Shown piece by piece: positions 17,009 to 59,726 of a stretch of DNA of 64,000 bases. Origin of the DNA: Candidatus Kuenenia stuttgartensis (GTDB taxonomy: Bacteria > Planctomycetota > Planctomycetia > Planctomycetales > Planctomycetaceae); contig CAMDPK010000005.1 of assembly GCA_945904015.1 (NCBI GenBank), forward strand, positions 1-64,000, written 5' to 3'. The first letter of the stretch is position 1. Every line of letters starts with the position of its first letter. A program made the translations under genes and the position numbers. The notes under the pieces are model-generated. The model was not told the origin of the DNA, did not search any database, and saw nothing but the letters and a program-made list of their open reading frames with translations.

Positions 17009-17032
17009 GGCAGAGACGTCCTTGTCTCAACA

Positions 17033-23724: not shown

Positions 23725-23850
23725 GTAGCCCTGTCGCTCCGCGACAGGAAAGCCGAACGGTCGTTTGACGTCGTCCGCGCGATCAACCCACAACAGCCAA
23801 TCCACGTCGTTCGCGCGCTCGGCTAACCTGTCGCGGAGCGACAGGGCTAC
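23725..23850. repeat. REPIN (family F1) flanking RAYT
   Basis: GTAGCCCTGTCGCTCCGCGACAGG ... CCTGTCGCGGAGCGACAGGGCTAC. It overlaps the spurious N-terminal extension of the RAYT ORF. Confidence 0.8.
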
Positions 23851-23890
23851 TTTCACTCGCCAGGAATCTCTAGCAACACGAAATCACTTT

Positions 23891-26713: not shown

Positions 26714-26791
26714 GTCAGGCTTCCCAGCCTGACTCGAACGGGCATCGACGCGGGTAGCAGCATTCGAGTCAGGCTAGGAAGCCTGACCTAC
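26710..26791. repeat. 82-nt palindromic repeat element (family F2), second copy
   Basis: GTAGGTCAGGCTTCCCAGCCTGACTCGAAC...TTCGAGTCAGGCTAGGAAGCCTGACCTAC. It exactly fills the gap between convergent stop codons (26713 and 26793), and its TAG supplies the upstream stop. Confidence 0.7.
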
Positions 26792-26792
26792 G

Positions 26793-27780: not shown

Positions 27781-27952
27781 TCTAGCACGACGCGCCAGCG
27801 AGTGGTCGAATGACCGGCGAATCTCATCTCTCGCTGGCGCGTCGAGCTAAGTGGACCCGCAGAGATCGGTAGGCAGTGGGATAGGCTTCCAGCCTGTCAT
27901 TTCTCGGAAACTTTGACAGGCTGGAAGCCTATCCCACGATGCGGGTCCACTT
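27781..27952. repeat. compound nested hairpin block (F3 arms + F2-like core GGGATAGGCTTCCAGCCTGTCA + outer AAGTGGACCCGCA/TGCGGGTCCACTT)
   Basis: Three nested perfect inverted repeats read directly. The block ends at the stop codon of the convergent amidohydrolase gene. Confidence 0.6.
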
Positions 27953-29669
27953 AGTTCTGTTGCGATCGGGGCTCCTCCGGGAAACTGCCATCGCGAAACA
28001 CGGCTTTGCCTTCCAGCAGTGTCAGCAGAACTTTGGCGAGATGAATTTCGTGCGCCGGGATCTCGAACAAATTTCGGTCGAGGACGACCAGATCGGCCGC
28101 TTTGCCGACTTCGATCGAACCGGTTTCGGCCTCCTCAAAATTCACAAACGCGCCGTTGATCGTGTAGCCGGCCAGCATGAGCGGCAGATCAACGGCCTCA
28201 TCGGGAATCCATGCCGCGCCGGGAGCCTCTTTGATTCCGCGGCGCGTCACGGCGACTTGAATCGCGTCGAGCGGATTCATTGACGACACGGACCAATCAC
28301 TTCCGCAGGCAATCACTGCCCCGGTCTTGGCGACGCTGCGAATCGGGTACAGCCAGCGTGAGCGTTCCGGGCCGAGCACAGGCAGTGTCATGTCAACGAT
28401 ATATGGGTCTGCTTGCGCCCAATACGGCTGGAAGTTGGCCACAACACCGAGCCGCCGAAAGCGTGCGATGTCCGGCGGGTCGAAGAGTTGGATGTGGGCG
28501 ATGTGATGCCGCGAATCGCGGTTGCCGTTGCGATCGCGAGCGAATTCCAGTGCGTCAAGCGAACTCTGAATCCCACGATCGCCAATCGCGTGAATGTGAA
28601 TCTGAAATCCGAGGCGGTCCAGTTCGGCGGCGAGCGGCTTCAGCACTTCTGGTTCGAGATTCAACCAGCCGCGATCATCGCCACCACCGAGATACGGCTG
28701 GAGCAACGCCGCGGTGCGTGATTCGATGACGCCATCTTGGAAAATCTTCACGGCGGTCGTCCGTAGTCGTTTGCTCTGAAACTTCGTGCGCCACTCGACG
28801 AACTGCGGCACCTGAGACATGCCTTTGGCGTTATCGATCCCCATCGCTGCGACCGTTCGCACAGTCAGCTCGCCGGACTTGTCGAGTTCCGCGAAGGCGT
28901 TGAGATGCTGGTCGGTGACTCGCGCCTCCTGCACGGAGGTGATGCCAAAACGGTTGGCAATCTCCAAGCCGCGACGAAGTCCAGTGACGAATTCTTCGTG
29001 TGAGTACGGCGGAGTTTTGAGAATGACCAGCCGCGCCGCCGACTCGCGAAGCGTGCCGGTCGCCTCGCCGGTTTTGGGATCGCGCTCGATGCGTCCACGC
29101 GGCGGGTCGGGAGTCTCTTTCGTGATCCCGGCGATTTCCAAAGCTCGCGAGTTCACCCACGACGAATGCCCGTCGAACGCATCGAGAATCACCGGCCGAT
29201 CCGGCACGATCTTGTCGAGCAACTCTTTGTGCGGATTGCCCCCGCTCAACGTCAACGGCCACCCGCCGCCGCGAATCCATTTCTTGTCGGGATGTCGCTT
29301 CGCAAACTGGCGCACCGCCTCAAGGACTTGGTCCATCGTCACCAATCCGTTGAGATTGCACTCGTCCAACTCGATGCCGCCACCCACCAGATGCACATGC
29401 GAGTCGTGAAAGCCCGGCAGCAGCATTTTGCCGTGAAGATCAATGCTGCGAGTCTGTGCTCCGATCCACGGCGCGAGGCCGGCATCAGTCCCAACGTACA
29501 CAATTCGTCCCGCGCGAATCGCGACAGCCTCGGCCCAGCTCCGTGCCGCATCAACGGTGTACACGCCACCGCCTCGGAACACGCAGTCGGCCGGCAGCGG
29601 CACGGCAGATTGGGCCGCGGCGACCGAGTGAAGTCCGATCAGCAACAACAGAACAGGCCGTGCCAACAT
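27951..29669 (-). CDS. secreted metal-dependent amidohydrolase (Amidohydro_3-like)
   Basis: ATG at 29669 (MLARPVLLLLIGLHSVAAAQS, signal peptide). GFHDSHVHL is the HxH metal motif. ...HIHAIGDRG and C-terminal ...ACGSDW are typical amidohydrolase-superfamily ligand motifs. Confidence 0.7.
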   Translation of the reverse strand: MLARPVLLLLIGLHSVAAAQSAVPLPADCVFRGGGVYTVDAARSWAEAVAIRAGRIVYVGTDAGLAPWIGAQTRSIDLHGKMLLPGFHDSHVHLVGGGIELDECNLNGLVTMDQVLEAVRQFAKRHPDKKWIRGGGWPLTLSGGNPHKELLDKIVPDRPVILDAFDGHSSWVNSRALEIAGITKETPDPPRGRIERDPKTGEATGTLRESAARLVILKTPPYSHEEFVTGLRRGLEIANRFGITSVQEARVTDQHLNAFAELDKSGELTVRTVAAMGIDNAKGMSQVPQFVEWRTKFQSKRLRTTAVKIFQDGVIESRTAALLQPYLGGGDDRGWLNLEPEVLKPLAAELDRLGFQIHIHAIGDRGIQSSLDALEFARDRNGNRDSRHHIAHIQLFDPPDIARFRRLGVVANFQPYWAQADPYIVDMTLPVLGPERSRWLYPIRSVAKTGAVIACGSDWSVSSMNPLDAIQVAVTRRGIKEAPGAAWIPDEAVDLPLMLAGYTINGAFVNFEEAETGSIEVGKAADLVVLDRNLFEIPAHEIHLAKVLLTLLEGKAVFRDGSFPEEPRSQQN

Positions 29670-32732: not shown

Positions 32733-32846
32733 CAGTGCAAAGTGAAGAGTGCAGACTGCAAAGTGCAAAGTGCAAAATTGGGGTGACGGAATGATTGCTT
32801 GTTCGACATTTTTCACTTTGCAGTCTGCACTCTTCACTTTGCACTC
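32733..32846. repeat. large inverted repeat (33-nt arms, ~48-nt loop) with internal GCAAAGTG tandem repeats
   Basis: CAGTGCAAAGTGAAGAGTGCAGACTGCAAAGTG ... CACTTTGCAGTCTGCACTCTTCACTTTGCACTC. Located in the 197-nt gap between giant gene A (stop 32877) and partner A (start 32679). Confidence 0.6.
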
Positions 32847-32876
32847 TCAATCCATCTGGCGAACGTGGCTACAAAC

Positions 32877-35800
32877 CTACTGCCCAAGGCACAGCACTTT
32901 GCCGTCGATGGTGGCGACGAAGATGCGGCCGTAGGCGGTGGACATGCCGTCCCAGACGGGCGTGCTTTTGAATTGAACGTTGCTGACGGCGCGGCCATCT
33001 TTCAACGAGACGGCGAACAACTGGAAGCCGAGTTTGCCTTCCAGCGCGTCATCTTGTTTTTGAAGCTGCGCGTGAATCGCCGGGTCTTTCGCGGCGAGAC
33101 GTTCAAAGGCGTATTCCTCGTCGAGGAAATCCGGCGGGCCGGCGTACAGCAGCGAATCTTTGCCGAGCACCATGCTGCGGCAAAACACCGGACTGAACTG
33201 AGTCCATTGATGCTCGAAGTGCAGGCCGCCCGGTTTTGCATTGCCGCCAGTCGCTGCTGCGGCCAGCTTCGGGAACAGCACGCAGGTTCCGATGCGACCT
33301 TGTCCGGTCGGCTGGCCGCCGAGATCGCCGTCGTTCTTGTGTCCCGAATCATCTCGCGCCGAGCCGTTATCGAACGTCAGTGCGACCTGAGCTTGAGCCG
33401 TCAGCCGCCGGGACTTTTCGGGATCGTCATGCGCTTCGGTAATTTCGGTGGCGGTCAGTTCGCGATGGAAGATGCGCACCTCGTCAACGGCTCCGACCAA
33501 TGGCGACGGACTTTTGTAATCTCCCACCGAGCCGCCGTTGTCGCCGCCGATCTCCAAAGGCTGAGCGGGATTGGTCGCGATCAACGCCTTGCTTTCGGAC
33601 TTCGCTTGCAGCTTGCCATTCACGTAAAGCTTCATCGACTTGTCCGCGCCGAGCACTCCGGCCAGATGACACCAGCCGTTCGGCAGCCGAATGTCGGCCG
33701 TCGCCGTCGCGAGTTCATTGGCGGCTCGGACATGGAACGACGGTTTGCGACCTTCAAACGTCAAGGCGTATCCGTTCGTCGGGCCGCCGTGCGCCACGAC
33801 GACTCCGGCCGGAGCGTCGGCCTTCACCCAGGCTTCGACGGTCAACGCCGTCTTGGCTGGATCGAGCGAATCGGTCTTCTCGAAGGAGACGGTGAAGGCG
33901 TCGCCGACAGCGCGTTTGCCTTTCGCGCCCGGCTTAGCACCGGCTCCTGCGACTGGCGCGTCACCGGCGGCATCGCGACTGGAGGAGAAGAGCTGATGTT
34001 CGAGCGTCGTGGTCCAGCGGTAGTACTGCGGCTGTCGTGCGTAGCCGAAGACGTCTTTGTCATTGAAGACCAGGATGCGGCCGGATGGCGTGTACTTGCC
34101 GGCTTGGTAGTAGCCGTTGTGTCCTCCGGCGAAGCTTTTGCCATAGACCCAATACGAACGATGGAACCAACTGTCGTCGAGGTAGCCCATCGGCGCGAAC
34201 AAATGCCGGCCGGGGCCTTTTTGATCTCCCCCTTGTTCCTCCGCATTGCCGGAGATCGGACCAATGTCGATGCGTTGGCCCTGAGCGTCAAACTTTTGAG
34301 ACCGCAGATAAATGAACTCGTTGTCGGACGAGAGGAGGTCGTTCAAGCCGACCGGCATCTGCAAGGTCTTCAGGCGGACTTGAATGTCCTCGCCGGTAAC
34401 TGGATCGCGATCGTCCATCACCGTCTCCGACAACTTCGTGCCGGTACGCGGATCGAGCCGCATGTAGCGCATGCCTTGATCGAGGAAGCTCGATCGTCCG
34501 CAGACGAATGTTGCAATGTCTTTTTCGACCAGCACCGATCCATGCACGGGCCAGACCGATTCAATCTGCTCGAACGAACCCAAGCGGCGATCGACCGGGG
34601 CGGCTCGGTAGCGCCACGCCAGCGCCCCATCGGACGCGCGCAGGCAATAGACCCAGCCGTCCACCGAGCCGAACAGCAGCCGGCCTTTCCAGTACGTCGG
34701 CGGCGAATCGACACGCCCGCCGGCCGTGAAGGTCCAGCGCGATTTCCCGTTGGCCACGTCGAGCGCATGCACGGTGTGCTGGTCAATCTGCGCGACGAAC
34801 ACGAGCCTTTCGGCAATCGTGAGCGCGGACAGACGACCCGGCAGCTTGATCTCCCAAGCCATGCTCAAGTCTTCGAGCAGTTCCTGTCCGGAAGAGCCAC
34901 TGCGGGCGTTATCGTGCCGATACGCCGGCCACTCCTCGACGGTCGCGTCACGCTCTTTGATCGAGTCGAACGCCAGACCTTTCTCCAAACGATCGGCCTC
35001 GGAAATCTCCTTCGGCAGCCGAGCGGACTTCAACGGCGGAGCCAGCGCGTTCAGCCCATACAGCTTTGCTTCGGGATAGCAGGCGCAGTCGTGCGGCGGA
35101 GCGTAGATCAAACCGTTGCACGGCATGACTCCGTACAAACAACCGCCGCGCACCCAGTGGTTGATGTCCCAGTGCTTGGCATTGAAGTCCACCAACTCGA
35201 TCCCCGTTCGCGACGGAATTAAGAAGCGATCGGTCGCCTTAGCGATGTAGCAGCGATGGTGAAACCAGTACGTGTCGATGTCGGGAGCAAACTGCGATTT
35301 CACTTCGCCCGATTTCGGATCGCGACCGGTGTAGATGCCCGAGTCTCGTCCGCTCGTCGTGGGAGCAACCCACACCAACCCGCCAGTGCAAATCAAATCC
35401 TGCGGCGATTGATAGCCGGACGGAGCATGCTCGGATTCCCACAGCAGTTTGCCATCGGACGCCGAACACGACTGCATCCGACCATCGCCGCCGGCATGCA
35501 GAACGACCTCGCCGTGCAGCACCAGCCGCGGAGCGAAATGGAACGGCAGCGCCTTGCGTCGCGCCGTCGGCTCGCTAGTCCATTGTTTCTGCCCCGTCAC
35601 GCGGTCGAGGCTCACGATCTCCTTGCCGTTCGAGTAGACCAGCCGCTGGTCGTTGACCGCCATCGTCAGCGGCACGATCGTCCCTTCGATCTTCCACAGG
35701 CGCTTGCCGGTCGCGGCATCGTGAGCCTGAATCTCGCGCGGGCCTTCGTTCCAGGTGAACTCACCGGCAACGCGGCCTTGATCGCCGGTGTTCAGCTTCG

Positions 35801-36785
35801 GGGCAAAGTCTTCCAACTCGGACGGGTTCGGATTGACGAGCGTGAACATCACGCTGTTGCTCAGCACAATCTCTTCCGCACCCTTCGTCGATTCGTAGAC
35901 CAACTCCGTTTTGCCCGTCGCGGCATCGAGCCGACTGACCGGGTCTTTGATCCCCATCGTCACATAGACGTGTTCGTCATCCGCGACCAACCGGCGAGCC
36001 AATTGCGTCGGCCCGCTCTTGAGCGGCCACATTTGATTGTGCCACTTGGCGATCGGCCGCTTCCACAGAATCGTGCCGTTGAAGCCGTCGCGCGAGATGA
36101 GGTTCCACTTCGACGGAAGCTGGATCGAAATCCGCGAGCCTTCATCCATGATGTAAGTCATGCGTCCCTTGGCCGAGACCAGAGCACTCATGCTCGCCAT
36201 GCGATCGTGATGCCGCGACCAACGGGGCGACCCGACCCACTGCAACCGCTCCGGCGTATCGACCACGCTATCGTGAGCAACCGGATTGCCGCTCGCGTCG
36301 TGAAAGTAGTGCGTCCAATCGTCGATGTCCTTCGGCCACGGCTTGGCGAGCTTGGTCCATTCGCCGCTCTGTTTGAGATAACCGACTCCATTCGGACAAA
36401 GCACTCGCAGCACTTCGTCCGTCGAAACGCCCAGCAACTCTTCCGCAACTACCAGATTCACGAAATTGTCGATGTAAGGCAGCGACGTTCCACTGAGCCG
36501 ATCGACGGAGACCGGCCCATAAACTCCCTTCGCTCGCAGATTGCGGCGTGCCTTCGCCACGTCGTCAGCATCCGGATCAAGTCCTTGCACCTGATAGCTG
36601 TCACTCGCCCGCAGCGCGGCCGTGAGTACTCCATCGCCGCTCCCCAAATGGACGACGATGCCTCCCTTGATCCCGGTCGCCTTGAGAATCTCCGCCGCTC
36701 GTTCCTTGGGAGCGACATTCTCTTGAGCCACCGCGACGGCCCCCAACACGATCCAGCAACCGACCGAGCATTTCCAAAAAGTCAT
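32877..36785 (-). CDS. giant secreted protein A: methyltransferase-like Rossmann domain + PQQ-like beta-propellers + LamG/concanavalin-like lectin domain
   Basis: ORF 32877-36797; ATG at 36785. Signal peptide. N-terminal class-I MTase-like motifs (VVHLGSGDG, VQGLDPD). Propeller blades with the conserved motif WTHYFHDASGNPV...LQWVGS and Cys cluster HHRCY...GGCLYGVMPCNGLIYAPPHDCACY. C-terminal LamG-like segment (EAWVKADAPAGVVVAHG...LYVNGKL...VDEVRIF). Confidence 0.7.
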   Translation of the reverse strand: MTFWKCSVGCWIVLGAVAVAQENVAPKERAAEILKATGIKGGIVVHLGSGDGVLTAALRASDSYQVQGLDPDADDVAKARRNLRAKGVYGPVSVDRLSGTSLPYIDNFVNLVVAEELLGVSTDEVLRVLCPNGVGYLKQSGEWTKLAKPWPKDIDDWTHYFHDASGNPVAHDSVVDTPERLQWVGSPRWSRHHDRMASMSALVSAKGRMTYIMDEGSRISIQLPSKWNLISRDGFNGTILWKRPIAKWHNQMWPLKSGPTQLARRLVADDEHVYVTMGIKDPVSRLDAATGKTELVYESTKGAEEIVLSNSVMFTLVNPNPSELEDFAPKLNTGDQGRVAGEFTWNEGPREIQAHDAATGKRLWKIEGTIVPLTMAVNDQRLVYSNGKEIVSLDRVTGQKQWTSEPTARRKALPFHFAPRLVLHGEVVLHAGGDGRMQSCSASDGKLLWESEHAPSGYQSPQDLICTGGLVWVAPTTSGRDSGIYTGRDPKSGEVKSQFAPDIDTYWFHHRCYIAKATDRFLIPSRTGIELVDFNAKHWDINHWVRGGCLYGVMPCNGLIYAPPHDCACYPEAKLYGLNALAPPLKSARLPKEISEADRLEKGLAFDSIKERDATVEEWPAYRHDNARSGSSGQELLEDLSMAWEIKLPGRLSALTIAERLVFVAQIDQHTVHALDVANGKSRWTFTAGGRVDSPPTYWKGRLLFGSVDGWVYCLRASDGALAWRYRAAPVDRRLGSFEQIESVWPVHGSVLVEKDIATFVCGRSSFLDQGMRYMRLDPRTGTKLSETVMDDRDPVTGEDIQVRLKTLQMPVGLNDLLSSDNEFIYLRSQKFDAQGQRIDIGPISGNAEEQGGDQKGPGRHLFAPMGYLDDSWFHRSYWVYGKSFAGGHNGYYQAGKYTPSGRILVFNDKDVFGYARQPQYYRWTTTLEHQLFSSSRDAAGDAPVAGAGAKPGAKGKRAVGDAFTVSFEKTDSLDPAKTALTVEAWVKADAPAGVVVAHGGPTNGYALTFEGRKPSFHVRAANELATATADIRLPNGWCHLAGVLGADKSMKLYVNGKLQAKSESKALIATNPAQPLEIGGDNGGSVGDYKSPSPLVGAVDEVRIFHRELTATEITEAHDDPEKSRRLTAQAQVALTFDNGSARDDSGHKNDGDLGGQPTGQGRIGTCVLFPKLAAAATGGNAKPGGLHFEHQWTQFSPVFCRSMVLGKDSLLYAGPPDFLDEEYAFERLAAKDPAIHAQLQKQDDALEGKLGFQLFAVSLKDGRAVSNVQFKSTPVWDGMSTAYGRIFVATIDGKVLCLGQ

Positions 36786-37016
36786 CGCCGACCTCAACCA
36801 TATCGAGTGCAGAATCGACCGGAATTGGACATTTTTGATCCGCTGCAGAGTACCCCGTCTGCTCGTGATCTTGAACCGTGCAAGGAATTCACAGGCGACT
36901 CTTTGGGCAATTGGCTGGGAAGTGGCCGGAACTCTGAGTATTTTGCATGTGCCGTAAACGGCCTGCCGCGTTCTCTGCTCTGTCGAATGCCCGCCCCGAG
37001 AAATTGAGATTGTCGG

Positions 37017-40000
37017 ATGTCACCATCGCCCCGCCGCCTGTTATCCATCGTGATATTGGCCGCACTTCTCTCGCCACTGGCGGCTGAGGGGGGCGATTGG
37101 CCGATCTGGCGCTACGACGCACAGCGCAGCGCGGCTTCGCCCGATGAGCTTCCGGCGCGATTGAGTCTGCAATGGGTGCGTCAGTTGCCGCGCTTGCAGC
37201 CCGCTTGGCCCGATCAGCCCAAGATGCAGTTCGATGCGGCTTATGAGCCGATCGTCGCGGGACAACGGTTGTTCGTTGGCTCGTCGCAGGACGGCAGCGT
37301 CGCCGCCTACGATACGCAGACCGGATCAGAGGCTTGGCGGTTCTTCACCGACGGGCCGGTTCGATTCGCGCCGCTGGCTTGGCAGGAGCGACTCTATTTC
37401 GCTTCTGACGACGGCTACCTGTATTGCTTGCGAGCGCACGACGGTTCGATCGTGTGGCGATTCCGAGGCGGCCCTTCGGATCGGAAGGTTCTGGGGAACG
37501 AGCGGCTCATTTCGACGTGGCCCGCGCGAGGCGCGCCGCTCCTGACCGACGGGAAGATTTATTTCGCGGCTGGCATCTGGCCGTTCATGGGGATCTTCCT
37601 GCACGCGCTCGACGCCACGACGGGGCAAGTACTGTGGACCAACGACGGCGACGGCTCGCTCTACATCAAGCAGCCGCACAACAGCGATTCGTTTGCGGGA
37701 GTCGCACCGCAAGGGCCGCTGGTGGCGATTGGTGGCAAGTTGCTGATCCCTGGCGGCCGTTCGGTCCCGGCCTGCTACGACCGCGCGACCGGGCAGATGA
37801 TTTATTATCAACTCGCCGAGAACGGCAAACGTGGCGGCGGTTCGAGCGTCGCGGCCGTCGATCAATTGCTCTTCAACGGCGGCGCGGCGTTTGATTTGGA
37901 AACGGAGAAGTACCTCGGCGCGATCGGTGAGTTACTGACGTTCGCCGACGGACGGCTCTACGACTACCGCGATCGCACGCTGCACACACAAGAATTGGCG
38001 ACCTCGCAGGTCAAGCTCGCGGACAGCATTGACCGCAAAGGAGTGGTGACGAAAGTCGCCAAGTGGACGATGCGCGAGCTGGGCAAAGTCGAGACTCCAA
38101 AATTGACCGCGCTCATCAAAGCTGGCTCGCGACTGTACGCCGGTTCGGCCGGCCGAGTGTTGTCAGTCAATCTGCCGCTGCCGGAAAAAGGGAAGCCAGT
38201 CATTGCTTGGGAAACGACGGTCGAAGGAACTCCCACCGGTATGATCGCGGCGGATGACAAGCTGTTCGTCGTCACGCTGGAAGGCCAACTGCATTGCTTT
38301 GGCGACACGAGGGACGCTCCCGCGTCACCGCGTCGGCATGACCTCGCGACGCAGCCGCTCGTTGCAGACACCGCTTGGTCGGACAAGGCCGCAGCGCTTC
38401 TCAAGGCCACGCGAGTCGAGCAGGGTTATTGCTTGGCTTGGGGTGTCGGGTCCGGTGGGCTGGTGCGCGAACTTGCCAGGCAAACGGAGTTGCGAATCAT
38501 CGTCATCGAACCAGATTCCGCGAAAGCCAATGCGTTTCGCGAACGAATGCAAAGCAACGGCCTGAGCGAGAGAGTTTCCGTGATCGTCGCCGATCCGCAA
38601 ACGATTTCTCTGCCCCCGTATCTGGCCAGCTTGATCGTCGCGGAATCGCTGCCGCCATTGGCCGACGAAGATCGCGCGAAGTTCCTGAACCAGACGTTTG
38701 ACGCACTGCGGCCGTATGGCGGTGTCGCGTGTTTGCCAATCCCGGCCGAGGAGCGTGCGGCGTACACAATTCCATTTGGCGAGCCGGAGGGCGTCAGCCC
38801 CCGGACGACGTCGCTCAGTCCGGGGGCTGACGCCCTCCGGCTCACCGGTGCCGTTTGGAGGCATGACGGTGAATGGACGCTGCTGATCCGCGATGGAGCC
38901 TTGCCGGACAGTGCCAATTGGACTCACGAACACGCCGACGCCGCCAACACGCGCGTCTCGAAAGACAAGCGAGTGAAAGCGCCGCTCGGCCTGTTGTGGT
39001 TCGGCGGATCGTCAAACGATGCGATCCTGCCCCGACACGGACACGGGCCGCAGCCGCAAGTGGTCGACGGCCGGCTGTTCATCGAAGGAGTCGATCTCTT
39101 GCGGGCGATGGATATCTACACGGGTCGCGTGTTGTGGGAATCGCCGCTGCCCGGAGTTGGCGCGCTGTACGACAACACGGCTCATCAACCGGGAGCGAAC
39201 GCCAGCGGCACGAATTACATCGCGACGCCAGAAGGCATCTACGTGGCGCATCGCAATGCCTGCCTGAAACTCGACCCAACCAACGGCAAGAAAATTGCCG
39301 AGTTCACGCTGCCGAACTCTCCCGGAGCCAAGTCAGCTCCGCTGTGGGGCTATCTCAACGTCGATGGCGACCACTTGATCGGTGGGGCCGATCCGGTGTT
39401 CGATCCGACACAGCTCAAGAATTCCAGCAAATCGAAAACTCCCGGCGGCAGCGACGACGATGACGACGCCAAAAAGAAAACGGCGGCGGTCAAATCGGCG
39501 GTGGCCGACGCGACGGCCGCGGTTGAGAAGCTGCTCAAGATCGACAATGACAACTATGTGTCGAGCAACCGGTTGGTCGTCATGAACCGCGCGACGGGCA
39601 ACGTGTTGTGGACCGCAACGGCGCGCAGCAGCTTCCGGCACAACGCGATTTGTCTCGGCGGCGGGCGGATGTACTGCATTGATCGCGCGTCGGGAGCAGA
39701 AGTGTCTCGCTTGAAGCGGCGCGGCGAGACGCCGAAGCATGAGCCGCGTCTTGTGGTCTTTGATCTCAAAACCGGTCAAGAACTCTGGAGCACGGAGAAC
39801 GACGTCTTCGGCACCTGGCTGAGCTACTCGGCCGAGCGTGACGTGTTGGTCGAGGCCGGACGCAACGCCAGCGATACGCTCGGCGACGAGCCGAAAGGGA
39901 TGCGCACGTATCGCGCAACGAGCGGCGACGCGTTGTGGTCCAGCAAGACCTTCACAGGTCCGGCGATGATTCATCACGACACGATTCTGATGGCCGGCAA

Positions 40001-40880
40001 GGCCTGCAACTTGCAGACCGGCACGCCGCGACTGCGCGAGCACCCGCTCAGCGGCGAGCCGGTCGAATGGACGTGGTCACGTAACTACGGCTGCAACACG
40101 CCAATGGCTTCCGAGCATTTGCTGACGTTCCGCTCCGGAGCCGCCGGCTATCTGGATTTCTGCAACGACGGCGGGACCGGAAACTTCGGCGGCTTCCGCT
40201 CCAGTTGCACGAACAACTTGATCGTGGCCGGCGGAGTACTCACCGCACCCGATTACACTCGGACCTGCGTGTGCAACTATCAAAACCAAACGTCGCTGGC
40301 GCTGGTTCACATGCCGGAGGTCGAAACGTGGACCTCGTTCGGTTCGCAAACTCCGAAGCAGCCAGTGCGACGAGTCGGCATCAACCTCGGCGCTCCCGGC
40401 GACCGCAAAGCCGACGATGGCACGCTGTGGCTGGAGTATCCCAGTGTCGGCGGTTCGTCGCCGACGGTCGCAGTCACGATCACTCCGGAGAAACCGGAGT
40501 GGTTCCGTCGTCACAGTTCGCAGATCGAGGGGCCGGGACTGGCTTGGGTCGCAGCTTCAGGAGCGAAGGGCTTGACCTCGCTGAAAGTCAAACTCGGCAC
40601 GTCGGACAAACACCCGCGAATTTACACGGTGCGGTTGCACTTCGCCGAACCGGATGATGTGCAGCCCGGCGAGCGAATCTTCAATGTCAGCCTGCAAGGC
40701 AAGCCGGCATTGATGTCGTTCGACATCGCGAAGGAAGCCGGCGGCCGCAACCGCACGTTGGTCAAACAATTGTCTGGCGTACAAGTCGGTGACGAACTCG
40801 TGGTCGAACTGACTCCGACAACCTCGAAACTTCGTGCCGCCATCCTCAGCGGCGTCGAGATTCAATCGGAAGGCTGGTGA
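37017..40880 (+). CDS. giant secreted protein B: PQQ-like propeller / MTase-like Rossmann domain / second propeller with Cys-His motifs / malectin-like C-terminal domain
   Basis: 1287 aa with a signal peptide. Central GVGSGGL...IVIEPD...VIVADP MTase-like motifs. Conserved NWTHEHADAANT...LLWFGG and ...FCNDGG...RSSCTNN...TRTCVCNYQN in propeller 2. C-terminal RIFNVSLQGK...FDIAKEAGG...VELTP...LSGVEI resembles malectin-type carbohydrate-binding domains. Confidence 0.7.
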   Translation: MSPSPRRLLSIVILAALLSPLAAEGGDWPIWRYDAQRSAASPDELPARLSLQWVRQLPRLQPAWPDQPKMQFDAAYEPIVAGQRLFVGSSQDGSVAAYDTQTGSEAWRFFTDGPVRFAPLAWQERLYFASDDGYLYCLRAHDGSIVWRFRGGPSDRKVLGNERLISTWPARGAPLLTDGKIYFAAGIWPFMGIFLHALDATTGQVLWTNDGDGSLYIKQPHNSDSFAGVAPQGPLVAIGGKLLIPGGRSVPACYDRATGQMIYYQLAENGKRGGGSSVAAVDQLLFNGGAAFDLETEKYLGAIGELLTFADGRLYDYRDRTLHTQELATSQVKLADSIDRKGVVTKVAKWTMRELGKVETPKLTALIKAGSRLYAGSAGRVLSVNLPLPEKGKPVIAWETTVEGTPTGMIAADDKLFVVTLEGQLHCFGDTRDAPASPRRHDLATQPLVADTAWSDKAAALLKATRVEQGYCLAWGVGSGGLVRELARQTELRIIVIEPDSAKANAFRERMQSNGLSERVSVIVADPQTISLPPYLASLIVAESLPPLADEDRAKFLNQTFDALRPYGGVACLPIPAEERAAYTIPFGEPEGVSPRTTSLSPGADALRLTGAVWRHDGEWTLLIRDGALPDSANWTHEHADAANTRVSKDKRVKAPLGLLWFGGSSNDAILPRHGHGPQPQVVDGRLFIEGVDLLRAMDIYTGRVLWESPLPGVGALYDNTAHQPGANASGTNYIATPEGIYVAHRNACLKLDPTNGKKIAEFTLPNSPGAKSAPLWGYLNVDGDHLIGGADPVFDPTQLKNSSKSKTPGGSDDDDDAKKKTAAVKSAVADATAAVEKLLKIDNDNYVSSNRLVVMNRATGNVLWTATARSSFRHNAICLGGGRMYCIDRASGAEVSRLKRRGETPKHEPRLVVFDLKTGQELWSTENDVFGTWLSYSAERDVLVEAGRNASDTLGDEPKGMRTYRATSGDALWSSKTFTGPAMIHHDTILMAGKACNLQTGTPRLREHPLSGEPVEWTWSRNYGCNTPMASEHLLTFRSGAAGYLDFCNDGGTGNFGGFRSSCTNNLIVAGGVLTAPDYTRTCVCNYQNQTSLALVHMPEVETWTSFGSQTPKQPVRRVGINLGAPGDRKADDGTLWLEYPSVGGSSPTVAVTITPEKPEWFRRHSSQIEGPGLAWVAASGAKGLTSLKVKLGTSDKHPRIYTVRLHFAEPDDVQPGERIFNVSLQGKPALMSFDIAKEAGGRNRTLVKQLSGVQVGDELVVELTPTTSKLRAAILSGVEIQSEGW
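38781..38843. repeat. REP-like hairpin (family F5: GAGCCGGAGGGCGTCAGCCCCCGGAC ... GTCCGGGGGCTGACGCCCTCCGGCTC) inserted in-frame inside giant gene B
   Basis: 63 nt, exactly 21 codons (EPEGVSPRTTSLSPGADALRL). The paralogs lack this segment at the aligned position. The same hairpin occurs intergenically at 48133-48203. Confidence 0.6.
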
Positions 40881-42162: not shown

Positions 42163-42185
42163 AGTCGCGGTGCGACAGGGCTACT
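42163..42185. repeat. single REP unit of family F1 (CGCGGTGCGACAGGGCTAC)
   Basis: Half of the F1 doublet. It overlaps the stop of giant gene C, between convergent genes. Confidence 0.5.
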
Positions 42186-45100
42186 GATCATTGCTTCCCG
42201 ACAGTGCCATCCACGAGCGGTTCTGATAGCTGCACGCACAACCGGCGGACGCATCGGGGACGAGCACCAATCCTCCGACGGGCAACGCGTTGATCCAGCA
42301 GCCGGGGCGAATGCCGCCGACGTTTTCCACGCCTGAGCCGCGTGTCAGATCGAGATACCCCAACGTCGCCGAGCGAAACAGAAGCATGTGTTTCGAGCCG
42401 GCGAGTTGACCACAGCCGTAAGACCGGTTCAACGTGAAGGGCTGATCCTCGCCGGTCAGAAGGTTCCAGGCTCCCCCTTGAGCGTAGATCGTGCGGTCGT
42501 TGATGAGCGGACGCGTGACGTACTTGGCTTCTTTGTCCCACAGCGATTTGCCGGTGCTGCCGCGAAACACCGCCAGGCGTCCGCCGACTTCCGACGGCAG
42601 TTTGAATCGCGTCGATTGAAAGCCCATCAGCAGCGCATCGTGTTGCGGACTGAAGGCGAGCATCGTGCCGAAGGCATCGCGGTCAGACTTCCAGATTTGT
42701 TTTCCGGTTGCGACATCGAGCGCGATCAACTGTCCCGGTGCATGTTTCACTTTCGTCACGGGGGGCAGCTTCGTGGACTTGTCGGAGCCATCCCATTTGT
42801 CGTCGTCGGACAACGGCCGGTCGATCAAGAACACTCGCCCCGCGCCGATCGCGATCGCGTTGTGACGGATTGAGTGCTCGGCATCGTACCGCCAGCGGAG
42901 TTCGCCGGTCTGAGCGTCGAGCGCAAAGAACGTCGAGGACTCGCCCAGCAGTTCGCTCGTGTCGGCTCGCACGTAGGCGAACCGCACTTGATGTTTCGGA
43001 TTGGCGAGCGAGCCGAACAGCCGTTTGCCATCGCAGGCGATGTATCCCCACGACCCTGCCTTGCCGTCCGGTTGAACCGGCGCGGGGAACTCGCCAAGTT
43101 TGCGGCCGGTGGCGGCATCCAATCGGTAGCAGCGCTGCTTGTCGTGAACGAAGACATTGCCGCTCGCGACGCAAAAGTTGCTGCCGGTCACGGCTGTGCC
43201 TGACAGGTGATCCGCGCTGTACGCTTTCTGAATGTTGGGCAACGGGAACTCCCACAAATTGCGGCCGTTGTAGGCATCGACTGCACGCAGCGCCGCGATT
43301 CCCTCGACGAACATGCGTCCGTCTTGAAACAGCGGAGCATGACCTCGGCCGTGCCGCTGCGGCATTTCCAAATCCACGTCGCGGAACCAGAGCGGGCTCA
43401 ACTGCCCTTTGACGATCTCGTCGGTCGAGCACGAACTGTTGCCGAGGTCCGAATACTGATGCGTCCAACTGCCAGACTTCGCCAACGCCCCACGCGTGAC
43501 GACGCGCATCTCGCCGAGCCGCCCTGAACAGACTTGACCACCAAACGGTCGCAACGGCTTGGGCGGATTTTCCGCAGACACGTCGAGCGGCCCGGCATCG
43601 AGCGACCGTGACGAGATCACCAAGTCGGCGAAATACTTGCCGTAACGAACATGCTCCGCGTCCCCTTGATGGACGGTGATCCGCACGCCGTACAAGCCGA
43701 GCGCACTCAACTTCTTTCGCAGCGACGCGACCGCCTCCGCGTCGGGATGCAGCACATAGATTTGCAGATTCGTCCGCTGAGCCAACGCCACGGCCAACTC
43801 GCCGTCACCACCATCGAGGTCCAAACAAAAACCCTCTTTGACTCCCGTGCGACGGATGATTTCATCAGCCGCTTTTGCGAACCGATCGGCCACGCGCGGT
43901 TGTTCTCGCGGCGGCGCGATCTCAGCCGGTGTCGCGTGTTGCTCGCCGTCAAAACAGAAAATCGAACCGCGATCGGTACTGACGTAAAGCCTGCCATTAG
44001 CCACCGCCAGCCCGTGCGGCACGCCATCAACCGGCGTGGACCAAACCGCTTGATGCGACTTGGCGTCGATGACCGTCACAGTGGTGCCGCCTCCCGCGAT
44101 GATCGAGTCACCCGCGACCATCACCGCCGCACTGCCATCGACTCCGGCCAGAGACCAGACGACTTGATGCTCCTGCGACGTCGTCGGCACGCCCTTGCGA
44201 TCCGGCGCGGTCTTCTCGACCAGCTTCAAAACGCGCACGTCCTTCTTGCCGCCGTACGCGATTCCGTCCGGCATCGCTGCGACCGCACCAAGGCCGAGCT
44301 TCGATTCCAGCGTTCCGGTCGCCAAGTTGAAGGCGACTCCGCCATTGTAGAAGCTCGTGCCTGACACGACCGTCTGCGTTCCGCCGGTGTGGCCGTTCGC
44401 TTGCAAGTGATAGTACAGAAACTTTCCATCGCCTCTCGCGAAGCCGGCCGGCACCGCTCGGCCGGTCGGCACGAGCAACTGATCTTCGGTCGCCACCAAG
44501 TACCCCTGAGCCGATACACCGCTGTTCGCCATCGCTCCGCCATGCGGCTGCGGCATGTAGATGCGGCCCGCCTCATCGTTTCGCCAAACCTCGTCTCCGG
44601 TCTTGGCGTCGATGGCTCGAATGAACACACCCTCGGACTGCCACACGCCCGCCGCGAAATACACAATACCATCACGAATCACCGGCCCACCACGAGCCGG
44701 CCAACGCGAGACCATGCGACCGTTCCCCAAAATCAACTCGTCGCTCTGCCCACCGTGCCATTTCTTTTGCAGCGCTCCATCGGACACGGCCAAGCAGTAC
44801 AGAAATCCGTCGTCGCTGACGACGAACACTCGATCCTTCCACACCGCCGGAGCGAACCGCACCGGAGCGTCCGTGAAGAACGTCCAGCGTTCTTGCCCCG
44901 TCACCGCGTCGAGCGCGACCACTTTGCAATCGGCCGCACTCCCAAAGAACAGCAAACCGCCAGCGACGACGACATCATTGGCTCGATCAAACATCATGCG
45001 ATCATCGCGCGGCCAAGCGGGAGTCGGCGCGTGCATCGGCCGATAAGTCCAAGCGTGCGAGAGCTTCTTCGGCAACGCTTCCGACGTGTAACCACTACGA

Positions 45101-45192
45101 GCCGCGTTGCCACGATACATCGCCCAATCGGCGGCGTGCGCGGCGGAAAGACATCCCAGAGCGAGCAGTAGGCAAGTCGCGATCTTGAGCAT
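42181..45192 (-). CDS. giant secreted protein C: PQQ-like propeller / MTase-like domain / second propeller with Cys-His motifs (no lectin tail)
   Basis: ORF 42181-45222; ATG at 45192 (MLKIATCLLLALGCLSAAHA). MTase-like CLDLDGGDG...YVLHPD...VHQGD. Conserved SWTHQYSDLGN...PLWFRD and GCWINALPVGGLVLVPDASAGCACSYQN. Confidence 0.7.
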   Translation of the reverse strand: MLKIATCLLLALGCLSAAHAADWAMYRGNAARSGYTSEALPKKLSHAWTYRPMHAPTPAWPRDDRMMFDRANDVVVAGGLLFFGSAADCKVVALDAVTGQERWTFFTDAPVRFAPAVWKDRVFVVSDDGFLYCLAVSDGALQKKWHGGQSDELILGNGRMVSRWPARGGPVIRDGIVYFAAGVWQSEGVFIRAIDAKTGDEVWRNDEAGRIYMPQPHGGAMANSGVSAQGYLVATEDQLLVPTGRAVPAGFARGDGKFLYYHLQANGHTGGTQTVVSGTSFYNGGVAFNLATGTLESKLGLGAVAAMPDGIAYGGKKDVRVLKLVEKTAPDRKGVPTTSQEHQVVWSLAGVDGSAAVMVAGDSIIAGGGTTVTVIDAKSHQAVWSTPVDGVPHGLAVANGRLYVSTDRGSIFCFDGEQHATPAEIAPPREQPRVADRFAKAADEIIRRTGVKEGFCLDLDGGDGELAVALAQRTNLQIYVLHPDAEAVASLRKKLSALGLYGVRITVHQGDAEHVRYGKYFADLVISSRSLDAGPLDVSAENPPKPLRPFGGQVCSGRLGEMRVVTRGALAKSGSWTHQYSDLGNSSCSTDEIVKGQLSPLWFRDVDLEMPQRHGRGHAPLFQDGRMFVEGIAALRAVDAYNGRNLWEFPLPNIQKAYSADHLSGTAVTGSNFCVASGNVFVHDKQRCYRLDAATGRKLGEFPAPVQPDGKAGSWGYIACDGKRLFGSLANPKHQVRFAYVRADTSELLGESSTFFALDAQTGELRWRYDAEHSIRHNAIAIGAGRVFLIDRPLSDDDKWDGSDKSTKLPPVTKVKHAPGQLIALDVATGKQIWKSDRDAFGTMLAFSPQHDALLMGFQSTRFKLPSEVGGRLAVFRGSTGKSLWDKEAKYVTRPLINDRTIYAQGGAWNLLTGEDQPFTLNRSYGCGQLAGSKHMLLFRSATLGYLDLTRGSGVENVGGIRPGCWINALPVGGLVLVPDASAGCACSYQNRSWMALSGSNDQ

Positions 45193-45234
45193 GGGAGACA
45201 CCTCTGAAATTAAAAACCCCACCCCACTTGCCGG

Positions 45235-45317
45235 GGTGGCTCGCGGGCTTTTGCACTACATTTTTCTCTGATTGGCGATTGCCTGTTGTTGAGTAGTGCA
45301 AAAGCCTGCGAGCCACC
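45235..45317. repeat. inverted repeat (GGTGGCTCGCGGGCTTTTGCACTAC ... GTAGTGCAAAAGCCTGCGAGCCACC)
   Basis: 25-nt arms with 1 mismatch and a 33-nt spacer, preceded by the small hairpin CCACCCCACTTGCCGGGGTGG. It lies between the moeB-like stop and the start of giant C. Confidence 0.5.
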
Positions 45318-45370
45318 GGGACAAGCCCGGAGGGGTGAAAATGCAGGTGCAGCTTATCCTGCGGATGAAC

Positions 45371-46129: not shown

Positions 46130-46273
46130 TGTGGAGTGCGTTGCTGAAGGAATTCACGAAGCGAAAACTAACCCGAAGCGTCAGCGAGGGCGAGCGCTTC
46201 ACGGAGACTCGATGACAAATTCATTGTCACTTGGAGCGTCCGCCCTCGCTGACGCTTCGGGTTACAAATCATC

Positions 46274-46555: not shown

Positions 46556-47235
46556 GATTCCGTGCTCCCGGCCAGCGGCGTGTTCAGGCTCGCGAGCGGT
46601 TGCTCGCACAGTTGGCCGGACTCCAAAACGAACAACTTCTCGGCCAGAGCACGAGCCTCGACTCGGCTGTGCGTGATGTGCAGTGTCGTCAAGCCGCTTT
46701 GCTTTTGCACCGAACGGAGTAACTCGCAGAGCCGGTCGCGAGTCGCTTCGTCCAGCGCGTTCAACGGCTCGTCGAGCAGCAGGACTCGCGGCCGGAACGA
46801 CAACGCTCGGCCGAGTGCGACTCGCTGGGCTTCGCCGCCGCTGAGGTTTGTGACTCGGCGAGTCAGCAGCGACTCGATTCCCAGGACATGAGCCAGTTCG
46901 GCAACTCGGTCACGCATCAGAATCTTCGAGCAGTGACGGACTCGCAATGCGAATTCCAGATGTCCGCGCACCGTCATCATCGGGAACAGGGCAAGGTCTT
47001 GCGGCACATAGCCGACGCCTCGGTCGCCCGGTTTCCAGCGCGTGATGTCGCTGCCGTTCAAAAGAACTCGGCCGCTGGTCACGGTGCGTAGTCCGCAGAT
47101 TGCTTCGAGGATGGTTGTCTTGCCTTGGCCTGTGCCGCCCATCAGCACCGCGTATGTGCCTTCGGGAATCGACAAGCCGACGTTCGTCAGCGAGAACGGG
47201 CCGGAGCGGATCGTGATGTCGCGTAGTTCGATCAT
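46552..47235 (-). CDS. modC: ABC transporter ATP-binding protein (molybdate/tungstate ModC-like)
   Basis: Walker A GGTGQGKTT, signature LSGGEAQRV, Walker B LLLDEP. 227 aa, short like ModC. The ModC identity is inferred from the neighbouring genes. Confidence 0.65.
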   Translation of the reverse strand: MIELRDITIRSGPFSLTNVGLSIPEGTYAVLMGGTGQGKTTILEAICGLRTVTSGRVLLNGSDITRWKPGDRGVGYVPQDLALFPMMTVRGHLEFALRVRHCSKILMRDRVAELAHVLGIESLLTRRVTNLSGGEAQRVALGRALSFRPRVLLLDEPLNALDEATRDRLCELLRSVQKQSGLTTLHITHSRVEARALAEKLFVLESGQLCEQPLASLNTPLAGSTES

Positions 47236-48125
47236 CGGATCACCTTCGTTCCGACCAGCCGCACAACTCCGAGCACCGCCATCGCGGCCAACACCATCAG
47301 CAGCGACACCGCCACCGCCGCTTCGAGCTGCCCAACGCTCAGTTCGAGGAACACCGTCGTCGAGAGGACTTCGGTGCGCATGCGAGTCGCTCCGGCGAAG
47401 ACCAGGATCGGGCCGAACTCGCCGAGTGACCGTGCCCAAGCGATCGTCAGCGCCGCGATAATCCCGCGCCAGGCTTGAGGCAACGCGATTTGCAGAAACG
47501 CCTGGCTGCGTCGACAACCGAGAGTCATCGCGACTTGCTCGGCGCGCGCGTCGATCTGGTCGAACGTCACACGCATCGTCTGCACAGCGAACGCGCAGGC
47601 CACGGAAAACTGAGCCAACACAACCGCCGGCTCGGCGTAGGTAATCCGGGGCCTCCAGCGGCACTGCGCGAACGGAATCCAGTTGTTCCAAAAACGAATC
47701 AATGCGCCCAACAACTGCTGGATCAGCTTCTCAAGATTCGTGTCGTCCGGCGGCTCCAGATTCGTATCGCCGAGCGGCAGATGGAACAGGATCAACAGAC
47801 TCAATCCAATCACCAGCGGAGGCAACACCACGGGGATGTCGATGAGCGTGTCGATCAACCAGCGCCCGCGAAACGAGAATCGCGACAACAAATATCCCAG
47901 CGGCGTCGCCACACAAATCGACAGCAGCGCCGAAATCGTGCATGTGATCAGCGTGAGTTGGATGGCATATTGAATCTCTGGCTTGCGCAGTGCGGCCACA
48001 AAGTGCTTCGGTGATGTGAAGGCGAGATCGGCCGCAAGCATCGCAACGATCAACAAAACAAAACTGCCGCCAAGTCCGCCCATCACAACAAAGAACGGCA
48101 CGTCCGAACCGGCGCGATGCGCCAT
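47232..48125 (-). CDS. modB: ABC transporter permease (ModB-like)
   Basis: Six hydrophobic helices. EAA-type loop AWARSLGEFGPILVFAG. ATG chosen at 48125 (MAHRAGS); the ORF extends to 48311 through the hairpin repeat. Confidence 0.65.
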   Translation of the reverse strand: MAHRAGSDVPFFVVMGGLGGSFVLLIVAMLAADLAFTSPKHFVAALRKPEIQYAIQLTLITCTISALLSICVATPLGYLLSRFSFRGRWLIDTLIDIPVVLPPLVIGLSLLILFHLPLGDTNLEPPDDTNLEKLIQQLLGALIRFWNNWIPFAQCRWRPRITYAEPAVVLAQFSVACAFAVQTMRVTFDQIDARAEQVAMTLGCRRSQAFLQIALPQAWRGIIAALTIAWARSLGEFGPILVFAGATRMRTEVLSTTVFLELSVGQLEAAVAVSLLMVLAAMAVLGVVRLVGTKVIR

Positions 48126-48132: not shown

Positions 48133-48203
48133 GAGCCGGAGGGCGTTAGCCCCCGGACATCCACGGATCCTGTCGCAGTCCGGGGGCTAACGCCCGCCGG
48201 CTC
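48133..48203. repeat. REP-like hairpin family F5, intergenic copy between modA and modB
   Basis: GAGCCGGAGGGCGTTAGCCCCCGGAC ... GTCCGGGGGCTAACGCCCGCCGGCTC. It fills the modA-stop to modB-start gap. Confidence 0.6.
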
Positions 48204-49743: not shown

Positions 49744-50188
49744 GATGGCGACGCCTTTCACAGAGTCGTCAGAGGCCCGTGACGGCGATTGGCTTGGGGC
49801 AACGTGGCGGACAAGCATATTTAGACCACACGAAATCAGGCGGGATCGACCAATACCAGGACGCGATTTGCATCCTAAGTCGCTCCCGTTGAGCGTGCAA
49901 CGAGTGGCTCGGTCGATCCCACGGCTGGCGAATTTGTGAATGTGGCTCGTAGCCACGCTCGCCAAGAGCGTGGGGAACGTGTCCCAAGCGTGGTCGTCCC
50001 ACGCTCTTGGCGAGCGTGGCTACAACTGCAAACCCAACGCAAACCAAACTTCTAGCCAGCCGTGGGTCGATCCCCTCGGCGATACTCGCGAAGCATCTGC
50101 CGCTGTATGCTGTTCGGCGATCTTGAATCGAATCCTCTGGCCGAAAGGCCGCTCCTGATTGGCGACTCCAAAATTGAGAGGACGACCG

Positions 50189-59402: not shown

Positions 59403-59563
59403 GAGCGCCCCCTGCGATCGTCCAAGATGGTGAGAACATTCCGACCGGCCGAAATCAGCCGCGAGCCATCGGCATGATAATCCATCGCTCGTCGGAATGC
59501 GGTGATTGATGCCACCGCAGCTCAAGTCGGGTGCGACAATACTTTCTGGCAACTCAATCAACC

Positions 59564-59613
59564 GCAGGGCGCTAGCCCCGGTTCATGCCGTGTAACCGGG
59601 GCTAGCGCCCTGC
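59564..59613. repeat. perfect 20-bp-stem hairpin (GCAGGGCGCTAGCCCCGGTT-catgccgtgt-AACCGGGGCTAGCGCCCTGC)
   Basis: Read directly. Located in the divergent intergenic region between the sulfatase and the 59727 gene. Confidence 0.5.
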
Positions 59614-59726
59614 GGCTAATTTCTGCCAGGATTGTTTGTCGCGCCCTTCAAGTCTGGATTACTCACCGAGATGAAGGGTGAGGTATATTGCTCGCCGTTC
59701 AATCTCACCCGGCCGGAGAACGCCCC

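Follow-up and report, generated by a model that had tools for sequence, protein, structure and literature searches.

A palindromic repeat doublet in a giant planctomycete gene, probably a translated selfish element tolerated as a protein loop

How can a long DNA palindrome reside inside a protein-coding gene? The question is raised by a stretch of 64,000 nt of planctomycete DNA (positions 1 to 64,000 of contig CAMDPK010000005.1, assembly GCA_945904015.1), analysed here at its full length; this stretch is called the window and all coordinates refer to it. One of its giant genes, giant B, contains within its reading frame a palindrome resembling the REP (repetitive extragenic palindromic) sequences of bacteria. 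The analysis presented here indicates that this element is very probably a dispersed selfish repeat made of two REP units, comparable to the REP doublets forming hairpins (REPINs), which is translated with its host gene as a tolerated loop. This reading is directly supported by the identity of the element with an intergenic copy, by its insertion relative to a 59-residue ancestral segment, by its open frame, by its predicted location in a loop and by the habit of the whole repeat family to lie in frame within genes. An original prediction, made from the letters of the window only, had placed at 38781-38843 an in-frame insert of 21 codons and had equated it with an intergenic element; both its successes and its shortcomings are reported below.

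The palindrome was found at the predicted place. The sequence GAGCCGGAGGGCGTCAGCCCCCGGAC occupies positions 38781-38806 of the forward strand and its exact reverse complement positions 38818-38843, with an 11-nt loop between these two perfect 26-nt arms. A repeat finder extends them to 29 nt (38778-38806 and 38818-38846) with a single mismatch, that is 97% complementarity. Each arm of 26-29 nt holds in turn a smaller hairpin, CCGGAGGGC-GTYA-GCCCCCGG, with a stem of 8-9 bp and a loop of 4 nt. When the 83-nt neighbourhood is folded alone, the predicted RNA structure reaches -71.3 kcal/mol, versus -37.1 +/- 3.4 for shuffled sequences (z = -10.1), and the predicted DNA structure -41.2 kcal/mol (z = -9.4). 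A mismatch-tolerant search of the window returned the 26-mer four times, corresponding to both arms of two copies, the only two of this family in the 64 kb, and the chance expectation with up to three mismatches is 0.00 (100 shuffles). The second copy is indeed the intergenic element designated by the prediction: its arms (48133-48158 and 48178-48203) differ from the 26-mer by one and two mismatches and enclose a 19-nt loop. The binding-protein gene located on one side (48202-49710, minus strand) takes its TGA stop codon from the end of the element (AAG TGA GCC), and the permease gene on the other side (47232-48125, minus strand) begins 8 nt past it. Orthologous intergenic copies are present at loci L109 and L185. 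The layout resembles that of the REP sequence located between malE and malF in Escherichia coli.

The insertion within giant B is aligned on the codons. The distance between positions 37017 and 38781 is 1764 nt, or 588 x 3, so that the element opens at codon 589, and the open reading frame (ORF) 37017-40880 is translated across it as ...AAYTIPFG EPEGVSPRTTSLSPGADALRL TGAVWRHDGEW.... Since Pfam domains (PQQ_2, Methyltransf_25 and Malectin) match on either side of the element, and since an identical protein of 1,287 residues (P0001) and more than 100 full-length orthologues are on record, this ORF is a real gene; the in-frame position and the encoded peptide announced by the prediction are therefore correct. 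The product is of the secreted type and combines a PQQ beta-propeller, a methyltransferase-like domain, a second propeller and a malectin domain. In an AlphaFold2 model of residues 440-720 computed with 63 orthologues, the Rossmann-like domain is predicted with confidence (predicted local distance difference test, pLDDT, ~90-98; core >90). The insert corresponds to model residues 150-170, within a coil (145-172, pLDDT 49-61) that connects the last helix (138-144) to a strand (173-178) of this domain. The modelled site is compatible with a tolerated loop at the protein surface, on the C-terminal edge of the methyltransferase-like fold. Four paralogous giant genes lie within 22 kb (32877-36797, 37017-40880, 42181-45222 and 50159-54169) and share a plan of PQQ beta-propellers with an embedded methyltransferase-like domain; three of the four contain extra domains, malectin in 37017-40880 and 50159-54169 and laminin-G in 32877-36797. 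The palindrome is lacking in the three paralogues of giant B (50159-54169, 42181-45222 and 32877-36797), in agreement with the earlier statement that paralogues C and D do not carry it.

The history of the site can be followed among the orthologues. Among 60 aligned sequences, the distant ones read ...LRPYGGVACLPIPAEERAACVTIAEESKLAGAVWKQDGDW... with no insert, and the closest group carries EPEGVSPR...PGADALRL or the variant QP.GASPRF...GASALRLMA. At 60 further metagenome loci, the span between the LRPxGG and WTHEH motifs counts 59 residues in the large majority of the distant orthologues, with 43-61 in the remaining ones, and 65-83 residues in the bearers of the element. Because the distant orthologues have a constant segment of 59 residues and the palindrome is present in a clade of close ones, it represents an insertion. 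The DNA of seven orthologues was compared at this site. Two close orthologues, L003 and L007, represent the empty site with its 59-residue span. The fullest form is found in L006, with 31-nt arms (TTGGCGAGCC...GGCTCGCCAA), both host flanks kept and a gain of 24 codons. In the window, ~21 nt of host sequence are gone on the right side, the distance from LRPYGG to GALP is 201 nt versus 150 nt, and the net gain is 17 codons. The figure of 21 codons given by the prediction is thus right for the element itself and too high for the net gain, as flanking host codons were lost. Such losses occurred independently in L001, L004, L008 and the window; the codons of an upstream helix (PAEERAAYTI) are missing from the first three, the whole region is deleted in P0009, and the copies of P0014, P0019 and L010 are truncated or decayed. 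The loops are akin only among orthologous copies, where they follow the pattern ACGACG...AGT (GACGTCGCTCA in the window, GACGACGTCCA in L004, GACGTTACCCA in L006 and GACGTCACCCA in L132). Since these loops are homologous and those of unrelated loci share nothing, the four copies derive from one event. Orthologues showing the same residues without a palindromic DNA structure had been named as the evidence that would contradict the prediction; those sharing the residues (L004, L006, L132 and L008) all keep the nucleotide palindrome. The insertion was followed by lineage-specific deletions of the flanks, by decay and by replacement with a sister family.

This sister family (arms ATCAGCCGCAGGGCGCTAGCCCCGGTT), which is the one found at 59556-59621 in the window, sits at the giant-B site in L005 and L002. 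Along the gene, the sliding-window identity of L004 and L005 is 92-95%, and it falls to 64% at the patch, which holds a different repeat family in each of the two. A neighbour-joining tree of the rest of the protein places the bearer P0007/L006 among empty orthologues, with the two arm types interleaved, and L006 is a mosaic, being nearer to the window than to L003 across alignment columns 840-990. On these grounds, a single ancient insertion followed by simple vertical descent was rejected as the whole story. Permissive loops of this kind are repeatedly hit or overwritten, and their alleles are probably exchanged by recombination as well.

How widespread is this repeat? The family was scanned with an exact pattern, one genome being retained per species, which yields a lower-bound sample of fragmented metagenome-assembled genomes (MAGs) containing some orthologous duplicates. 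At least 111 stretches were obtained from ~20 related MAGs, several of which had more than 10 contigs matched. The counts of copies given from here on are those among the matches listed, which all come from freshwater MAGs named 'Planctomyces sp.', Schlesneria or Planctomycetaceae. They comprise 87 doublets and 37 single units, with identical arms and spacers of 1-76 nt unrelated between loci; the GC-rich elements measure 58-124 bp. In 80 aligned copies, conservation is symmetrical out to wGGYGAGCC...GGCTCRCCw and stops there, the flanks being unrelated past wGGYGA. The repeat evidently breaks short-read assemblies, as 29 of the 124 copies lie within ~190 nt of a contig end, and this may bias the census of locations. 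The family has the characteristics of REP sequences in being a short palindromic stem-loop unit dispersed in many copies and in inverted pairs, and departs from them in its location, which is not predominantly extragenic. When a collection of 5.8 billion proteins was searched with a synthetic 52-residue concatenate of the encoded peptide, only three candidates were returned.

The proportion of copies residing in genes must be estimated with care. Long spurious antisense ORFs exist in these genomes, reaching 807 codons, as illustrated in the window by the ORF 32799-35222 on the plus strand opposite the gene 32877-36797 on the minus strand. Consequently, ORF length alone is no evidence of coding here and copies located just upstream of genes can look intragenic. 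For this reason a codon-usage classifier of the flanks was built, which was 97% correct on held-out genes. Away from contig ends, 76 doublets could be scored: 31 (41%) are in frame, both flanks being coding with strand and phase shared; in 38 the flank is non-coding on one side or both, and in seven the two flanks share the strand and differ in phase. Among the 31 in-gene copies, three to four may be chance same-phase neighbours and at least four are orthologous duplicates. The prediction had called a palindrome tolerated as a protein loop uncommon, which holds for bacteria generally and does not hold for this lineage. In the sister family and in two families tagged by GTAG, the copies in the loci analysed are too few for frame statistics, and two of three apparently in-frame GTAG cases contained stop codons.

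The host proteins are diverse, and very long ORFs span many of the copies. Pfam domains are recognized on both sides of the insert in an HrpA helicase, an RND pump of the AcrB type, a Ser/Thr kinase with leucine-rich repeats, a PSD/PSCyt protein and a cytochrome c/GSDH protein. The gene of the cytochrome c/glucose-sorbosone-dehydrogenase type (L169, 479-5191) contains three in-frame elements, a doublet and two single units, located at codons 280, 446 and 676. A VWA/TPR protein also carries a copy, with weak domain matches at or below the Pfam cut-off. The 1,640-codon ORF L127 802-5721 has an in-frame copy at codon 676 and, only downstream of it, a C2c1 (Cas12b) RuvC-like domain (PF22126, E = 3e-21). 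In one kinase the doublet lies in the catalytic core, between HRDIKPANLL and VKILDMG, a site that is empty in three related kinases. In the HrpA helicase P0122/L088, a copy occupies the linker between the HA2 and OB domains. The 88% identical P0123/L194 shows at the same place (2400-2620) a doublet of the GTAG type, GTAGGACGGGCACTCTTGCCCGTC..., nested in what appears to be a degenerate copy. This HA2-OB linker is a hot spot in planctomycete HrpA proteins (P0122-P0153), where it accommodates varied and often low-complexity peptides such as SLECGGSTPP...GGRRQAAALQ, EAPAEPVRD...HRGSAGASPS or ISNLKSQISN. DNA palindromes were examined in L088 and L194 only, and it is suspected that the other linker inserts derive from further repeat families.

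The in-gene copies obey a strict usage of the reading frame. The 5' arm is read as (G)EPEGVSPRT in 30 of the 31 cases. For the 3' arm, the reading is VRGLTPSGS(P) in 18 copies and PGADALRL(A/T), that of the window, in 10; SRRASAPG occurs once and AGGRQPPD never. The spacing class that would put a TGA or TAA of the 3' arm in frame is found in 2/31 copies within genes versus 18/45 outside. Since configurations with in-frame stops are excluded from genes, the insert is most simply understood as translated rather than skipped, and a translational bypass of the hairpin was rejected on the same evidence. The frame bias is in part mechanical, stop codons arising in the third frame: TAG from the GTTA variant of the loop (~55% of arms) and TGA from the GGTGA variant of the end (~25%). 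Nevertheless, ~4-5 of 18 copies would be expected in that frame and none was seen (hand calculation, P ~0.006). Codon-usage scores are positive for three frames, which are also those used. In host genes, the hexamer GGCGAG lies in the GGC-GAG (Gly-Glu) phase in 66 of 86 occurrences (77%); because of this bias, integration or copying at a microhomology with the ends of the element would place ~80% of the copies in frame 1. Consistently, the empty allele of the giant-B site presents an in-phase CTC GCC GGT which coincides with the right end of the element. Insertion into a GGC|GCC target was rejected as a general model, as length modulo 3 fits only the ...PGADALRLA class. The rule of the single frame is regarded as largely, though not securely, explained.

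The arms have also been kept to an unexpected degree. Between giant-B orthologues, 53-57 of the 58 arm nucleotides are identical versus a third-position identity of 59-78% in the 600 nt of downstream coding sequence; at the third-position rate, arms as similar as these would have a probability of 6e-4 to 5e-11. In 10 orthologous pairs at other loci, identity is 94.8% in arms, 86.1% in flanks and 69.4% in loops, some of the latter having been wholly replaced with the frame kept.

The following scenario would account for these data with a high degree of probability. The non-coding selfish repeat would consist of two inverted REP-like stem-loop units with arms of ~29 nt and a free spacer, and one copy would have entered a permissive surface loop of a giant protein of periplasmic type. 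Its length and phase would keep the frame open, so that the repeat would be transcribed and translated with the gene, adding a flexible loop of 21-23 residues. It would fulfil no function for the host and be at most mildly deleterious, a neutrality suggested by decay or deletion in several orthologues. The single frame may partly reflect integration at GGYGAG-like microhomologies, and the arms would be maintained by conversion or re-insertion occurring repeatedly from other members of the family rather than by a host function. Several points weigh against this scenario. The intragenic fraction comes from a limited sample of fragmented MAGs that includes orthologous duplicates. No target-site duplication flanks the 80 aligned copies, and the comparison of the kinase with its empty sites gives no clean junction. 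In ~0.8 Mb of fragmented sequence, no transposase gene flanked by this family was encountered, both genes resembling REP-associated tyrosine transposases (RAYTs) being flanked by other families. The use of one frame by 30 of 31 copies is not predicted by random insertion followed by a filter against stops, and the microhomology phase and the frame-3 stops cover most of it, not clearly all. Finally, the slow evolution of the arms is ill suited to pure neutral passengers: conversion, re-insertion or selection must be invoked.

In another explanation, which is considered possible but unlikely, the palindrome itself would be adapted to coding sequence. One of its frames would have evolved to be codon-optimal and free of stops; integration, or copying through template switching or conversion, would take place at GGYGAG/CTCRCC-like microhomologies, which in GC3-rich genes fix this frame; and its arms would be actively homogenised across copies. 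Gene interiors rather than intergenic DNA would then be the main niche of the family, which would steadily supply conserved planctomycete proteins with new loops, nested inserts and local deletions. In a stronger form of this proposal, a conserved trans-acting protein may bind the arms and the in-gene copies may be regulatory.

It appears quite improbable that the hairpin is instead a nucleic-acid element under selection, the loop being the price paid by the protein. Such an element could act in the mRNA by ribosome pausing, as an RNase III site or by stabilisation, or in the DNA as a site for gyrase, IHF or a RAYT. Arms evolving far more slowly than synonymous sites, a very stable predicted hairpin and an intergenic copy conserved in three genomes at a position resembling malE-malF are all in its favor. 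The tests at the RNA level point in the opposite direction: arm mismatches show no sense-strand preference for G:U over A:C (18 versus 15), a terminator and promoter scan around the element detected no T-tract terminator, and Rfam gave no match in the whole window. Several orthologues have moreover lost or degraded the element with the gene intact, close relatives bear different repeat families at the giant-B site, and the conservation, which is equal at unrelated loci, concerns the sequence of the arms beyond their pairing. An effect of the mRNA structure on translation, which had been suggested in the prediction, is consequently unsupported. Homogenisation of the arms by conversion or re-insertion, or recognition of the DNA by a family-specific protein, is favoured over a function in the mRNA.

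Could the peptide be conserved rather than the DNA? In this hypothesis, GEPEGVSPRT...(VRGLTPSGSP or PGADALRLA) would serve as a mobile linker or short motif, for instance as a target of a protease or of a modification or as a flexible hinge, as the 30 copies read as one peptide in a single frame and the positive codon-usage scores of the frames used would suggest. More than half of the scorable copies are however not read through in the frame of a gene, the 3' arm is read in two frames (18 and 10 copies) and the loops are hypervariable. The nucleotide palindrome is kept exactly, which a constraint on the peptide does not need, the peptide is predicted to be disordered, and the host proteins are unrelated in function and cellular location. 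This hypothesis is thus highly improbable. A chimeric assembly, or an inverted repeat arisen by chance or in place and foreign to any repeat family, is effectively refuted: repeats of this type often break short-read assemblies, as the copies at contig ends attest, but the element is found at the same codon position in independent ENA, NCBI and JGI assemblies (L001, L004, L006, L008, L009 and L132) and its chance expectation is zero.

Comparison with known systems helps to define this family. REPINs are mobilised by Y1 transposases related to IS200/IS605; they are typically extragenic and their spacers are conserved. The planctomycete family has the same architecture of a doublet hairpin, and RAYT-like genes accompanied by REP doublets exist in the same genomes, with the difference that those observed adjoin other families (GTAGCCCTGTCGC..., GTGGCGCACGCGG...). 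In the window, positions 22968-23318 of the minus strand encode the C-terminal fragment of an IS200-like Y1 transposase of the RAYT type (PF01797, 26 bits) with the HVHLL and YIANN motifs, flanked by GTAG-tagged GTAGCCCTGTCGCTCCGCGACAGG doublets at 22845-22972 and 23722-23853. The region 22845-23853 constitutes a REPtron-like unit, in which the Y1 gene ends on a TAG stop contained in a GTAG repeat. Another small palindrome (23374-23453) separates this ORF from a plausible N-terminal part (23690-23421), and the gene may be disrupted. At L113 (3388-4215), an intact RAYT-like gene with a Y1_Tnp match has a GTGG-tagged family on its flanks. Mobile GC-rich hairpins inserted in coding sequences are also represented by the 'byp' elements of Magnusiomyces mitochondria and by the bypassing of T4 gene 60; byps are skipped by the ribosome and may hold stops. 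They share with the commonest class of the planctomycete family the matching Gly codons on both sides of the insert (GGC...GGC). They differ from it in that stop-bearing configurations are excluded from planctomycete genes, where the element is presumably read through.

The closest parallel is provided by the Rickettsia palindromic elements (RPEs), described in ten families (RPE-1 to RPE-10; Ogata et al. 2000, 2002). According to excerpts of PMC2229807 and PMC10969869, nearly half of their copies lie in frame in unrelated ORFs, with a conserved peptide per family at sites compatible with the protein fold; they are thought to be selfish with a neutral or slightly harmful effect, and one host enzyme that was tested stayed active. 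The planctomycete family likewise shows a large in-frame fraction in unrelated genes and a peptide of its own. The RPEs are AT-rich elements of 100-150 bp from obligate intracellular alphaproteobacteria with reduced genomes, and were described as a peculiarity of Rickettsia. The planctomycete elements are GC-rich, measure 58-124 bp with a free spacer and belong to free-living freshwater hosts with large genomes. They are therefore an analogue of the RPEs, probably unrelated to them in sequence and set apart by length, host phylum and GC content.

Dimers of REP sequences inside genes were reported by Di Nocera, De Gregorio and Rocco (2013; PMC3733652, here and below from excerpts of the article) to encode 20-30 residues, their numbers being highest in Opitutus terrae and in R. 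conorii. The spacers of GTAG and CGTC dimers are variable, REPs can be inserted in other palindromes and several families coexist in the planctomycete R. baltica (PMC3733652). The intragenic dimers of Opitutus terrae, a member of the Planctomycetes-Verrucomicrobia-Chlamydiae (PVC) superphylum, have in common with the present family the inverted stem-loop pairs, hosts such as DNA/RNA helicase or repair genes, and nesting. Most REPs in that survey occupy intergenic space, versus ~40% of copies within genes here. The tags differ as well: GTAG REPs have a terminal GTAG, and CGTC REPs a terminal CGTC, A-T pairs at positions 1-2 of the stem and a CCA tail (PMC3733652), whereas the planctomycete elements end in GGYGAG/CTCRCC, have a stem made entirely of G-C pairs and contain CGTC only where stem and loop meet in the GTCA variant. 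Keyword searches of this article turned up no rule of a single frame. [quoted passage not shown] MITEs are defined by terminal inverted repeats with a target-site duplication, often TA, and by a conserved interior derived from an insertion sequence; in the planctomycete family no duplication was found and the interior is variable.

Palindromes within genes thus have precedents in Rickettsia and in a small number of other bacteria (excerpts of PMC3733652 and PMC10969869). The present work adds a GC-rich family of coding palindromes in free-living freshwater Planctomycetaceae, on a scale comparable to that of Rickettsia. For annotation, it explains odd low-complexity inserts of 20-30 residues, short spurious ORFs and some contig breaks in planctomycete MAGs. 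For evolution, the dated orthologous alleles, be they filled, empty, decayed or replaced, offer a tractable case for studying the entry of a hairpin, the survival of the frame and the uniformity of the arms. The inserts also remodel the neighboring segments, as an ancestral helix was deleted beside them in several lineages. The high in-gene fraction, the single frame and the strong conservation of the arms merit follow-up, the features of frame and arms being only partly explained. The coordinates of the features are collected in Table 1.

Table 1. Location and description of the element, its host gene and the other repeats of the window
Feature	Position	Strand	Description
Host gene, giant B	37017..40880	+	1,287 residues; element = codons 589-609
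Methyltransf_25 match, residues 474-568	38436..38720	+	Element ~20 residues downstream
Whole palindromic element (REP doublet)	38778..38846	.	29-nt arms GGCGAGCC...GGCTCACC; encodes G-EPEGVSPRTTSLSPGADALRL-T
5' arm, REP unit 1	38781..38806	+	Imperfect hairpin CCGGAGGGC-GTCA-GCCCCCGG; read EPEGVSPR(T)
Loop/spacer GACGTCGCTCA	38807..38817	+	Encodes T-S-L-S; locus-specific
3' arm, REP unit 2	38818..38843	+	Exact reverse complement of 5' arm; read (S)PGADALRL
Second copy of the same family, intergenic	48133..48203	.	Fills the gap between solute-binding-protein and permease genes
Sister-family copy, arms AATCAACCGCAGGGCGCTAGCCCCGGTT, intergenic	59556..59621	.	Repeat finder
Other-family doublets	1361-1442, 7090-7164, 17032-17146, 26709-26792, 27783-27957, 32734-32845, 45216-45336, 46169-46264, 49949-50023		

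The hexamer GGCGCC is absent from the window, where 43 +/- 6 occurrences are expected from shuffled sequences, and also from 83 kb of pooled coding sequence from the window and related loci, an absence suggestive of restriction-modification or of some other strong avoidance of this hexamer. The window also holds at least five further families of palindromic doublets of 60-130 nt, all of them between genes, and several of these doublets begin with GTAG (GTAGGTCAGGC..., GTAGCCCTGTCGC..., GTAGCCACGCTCG...). The element of giant B is the sole strong intragenic palindrome of the window.

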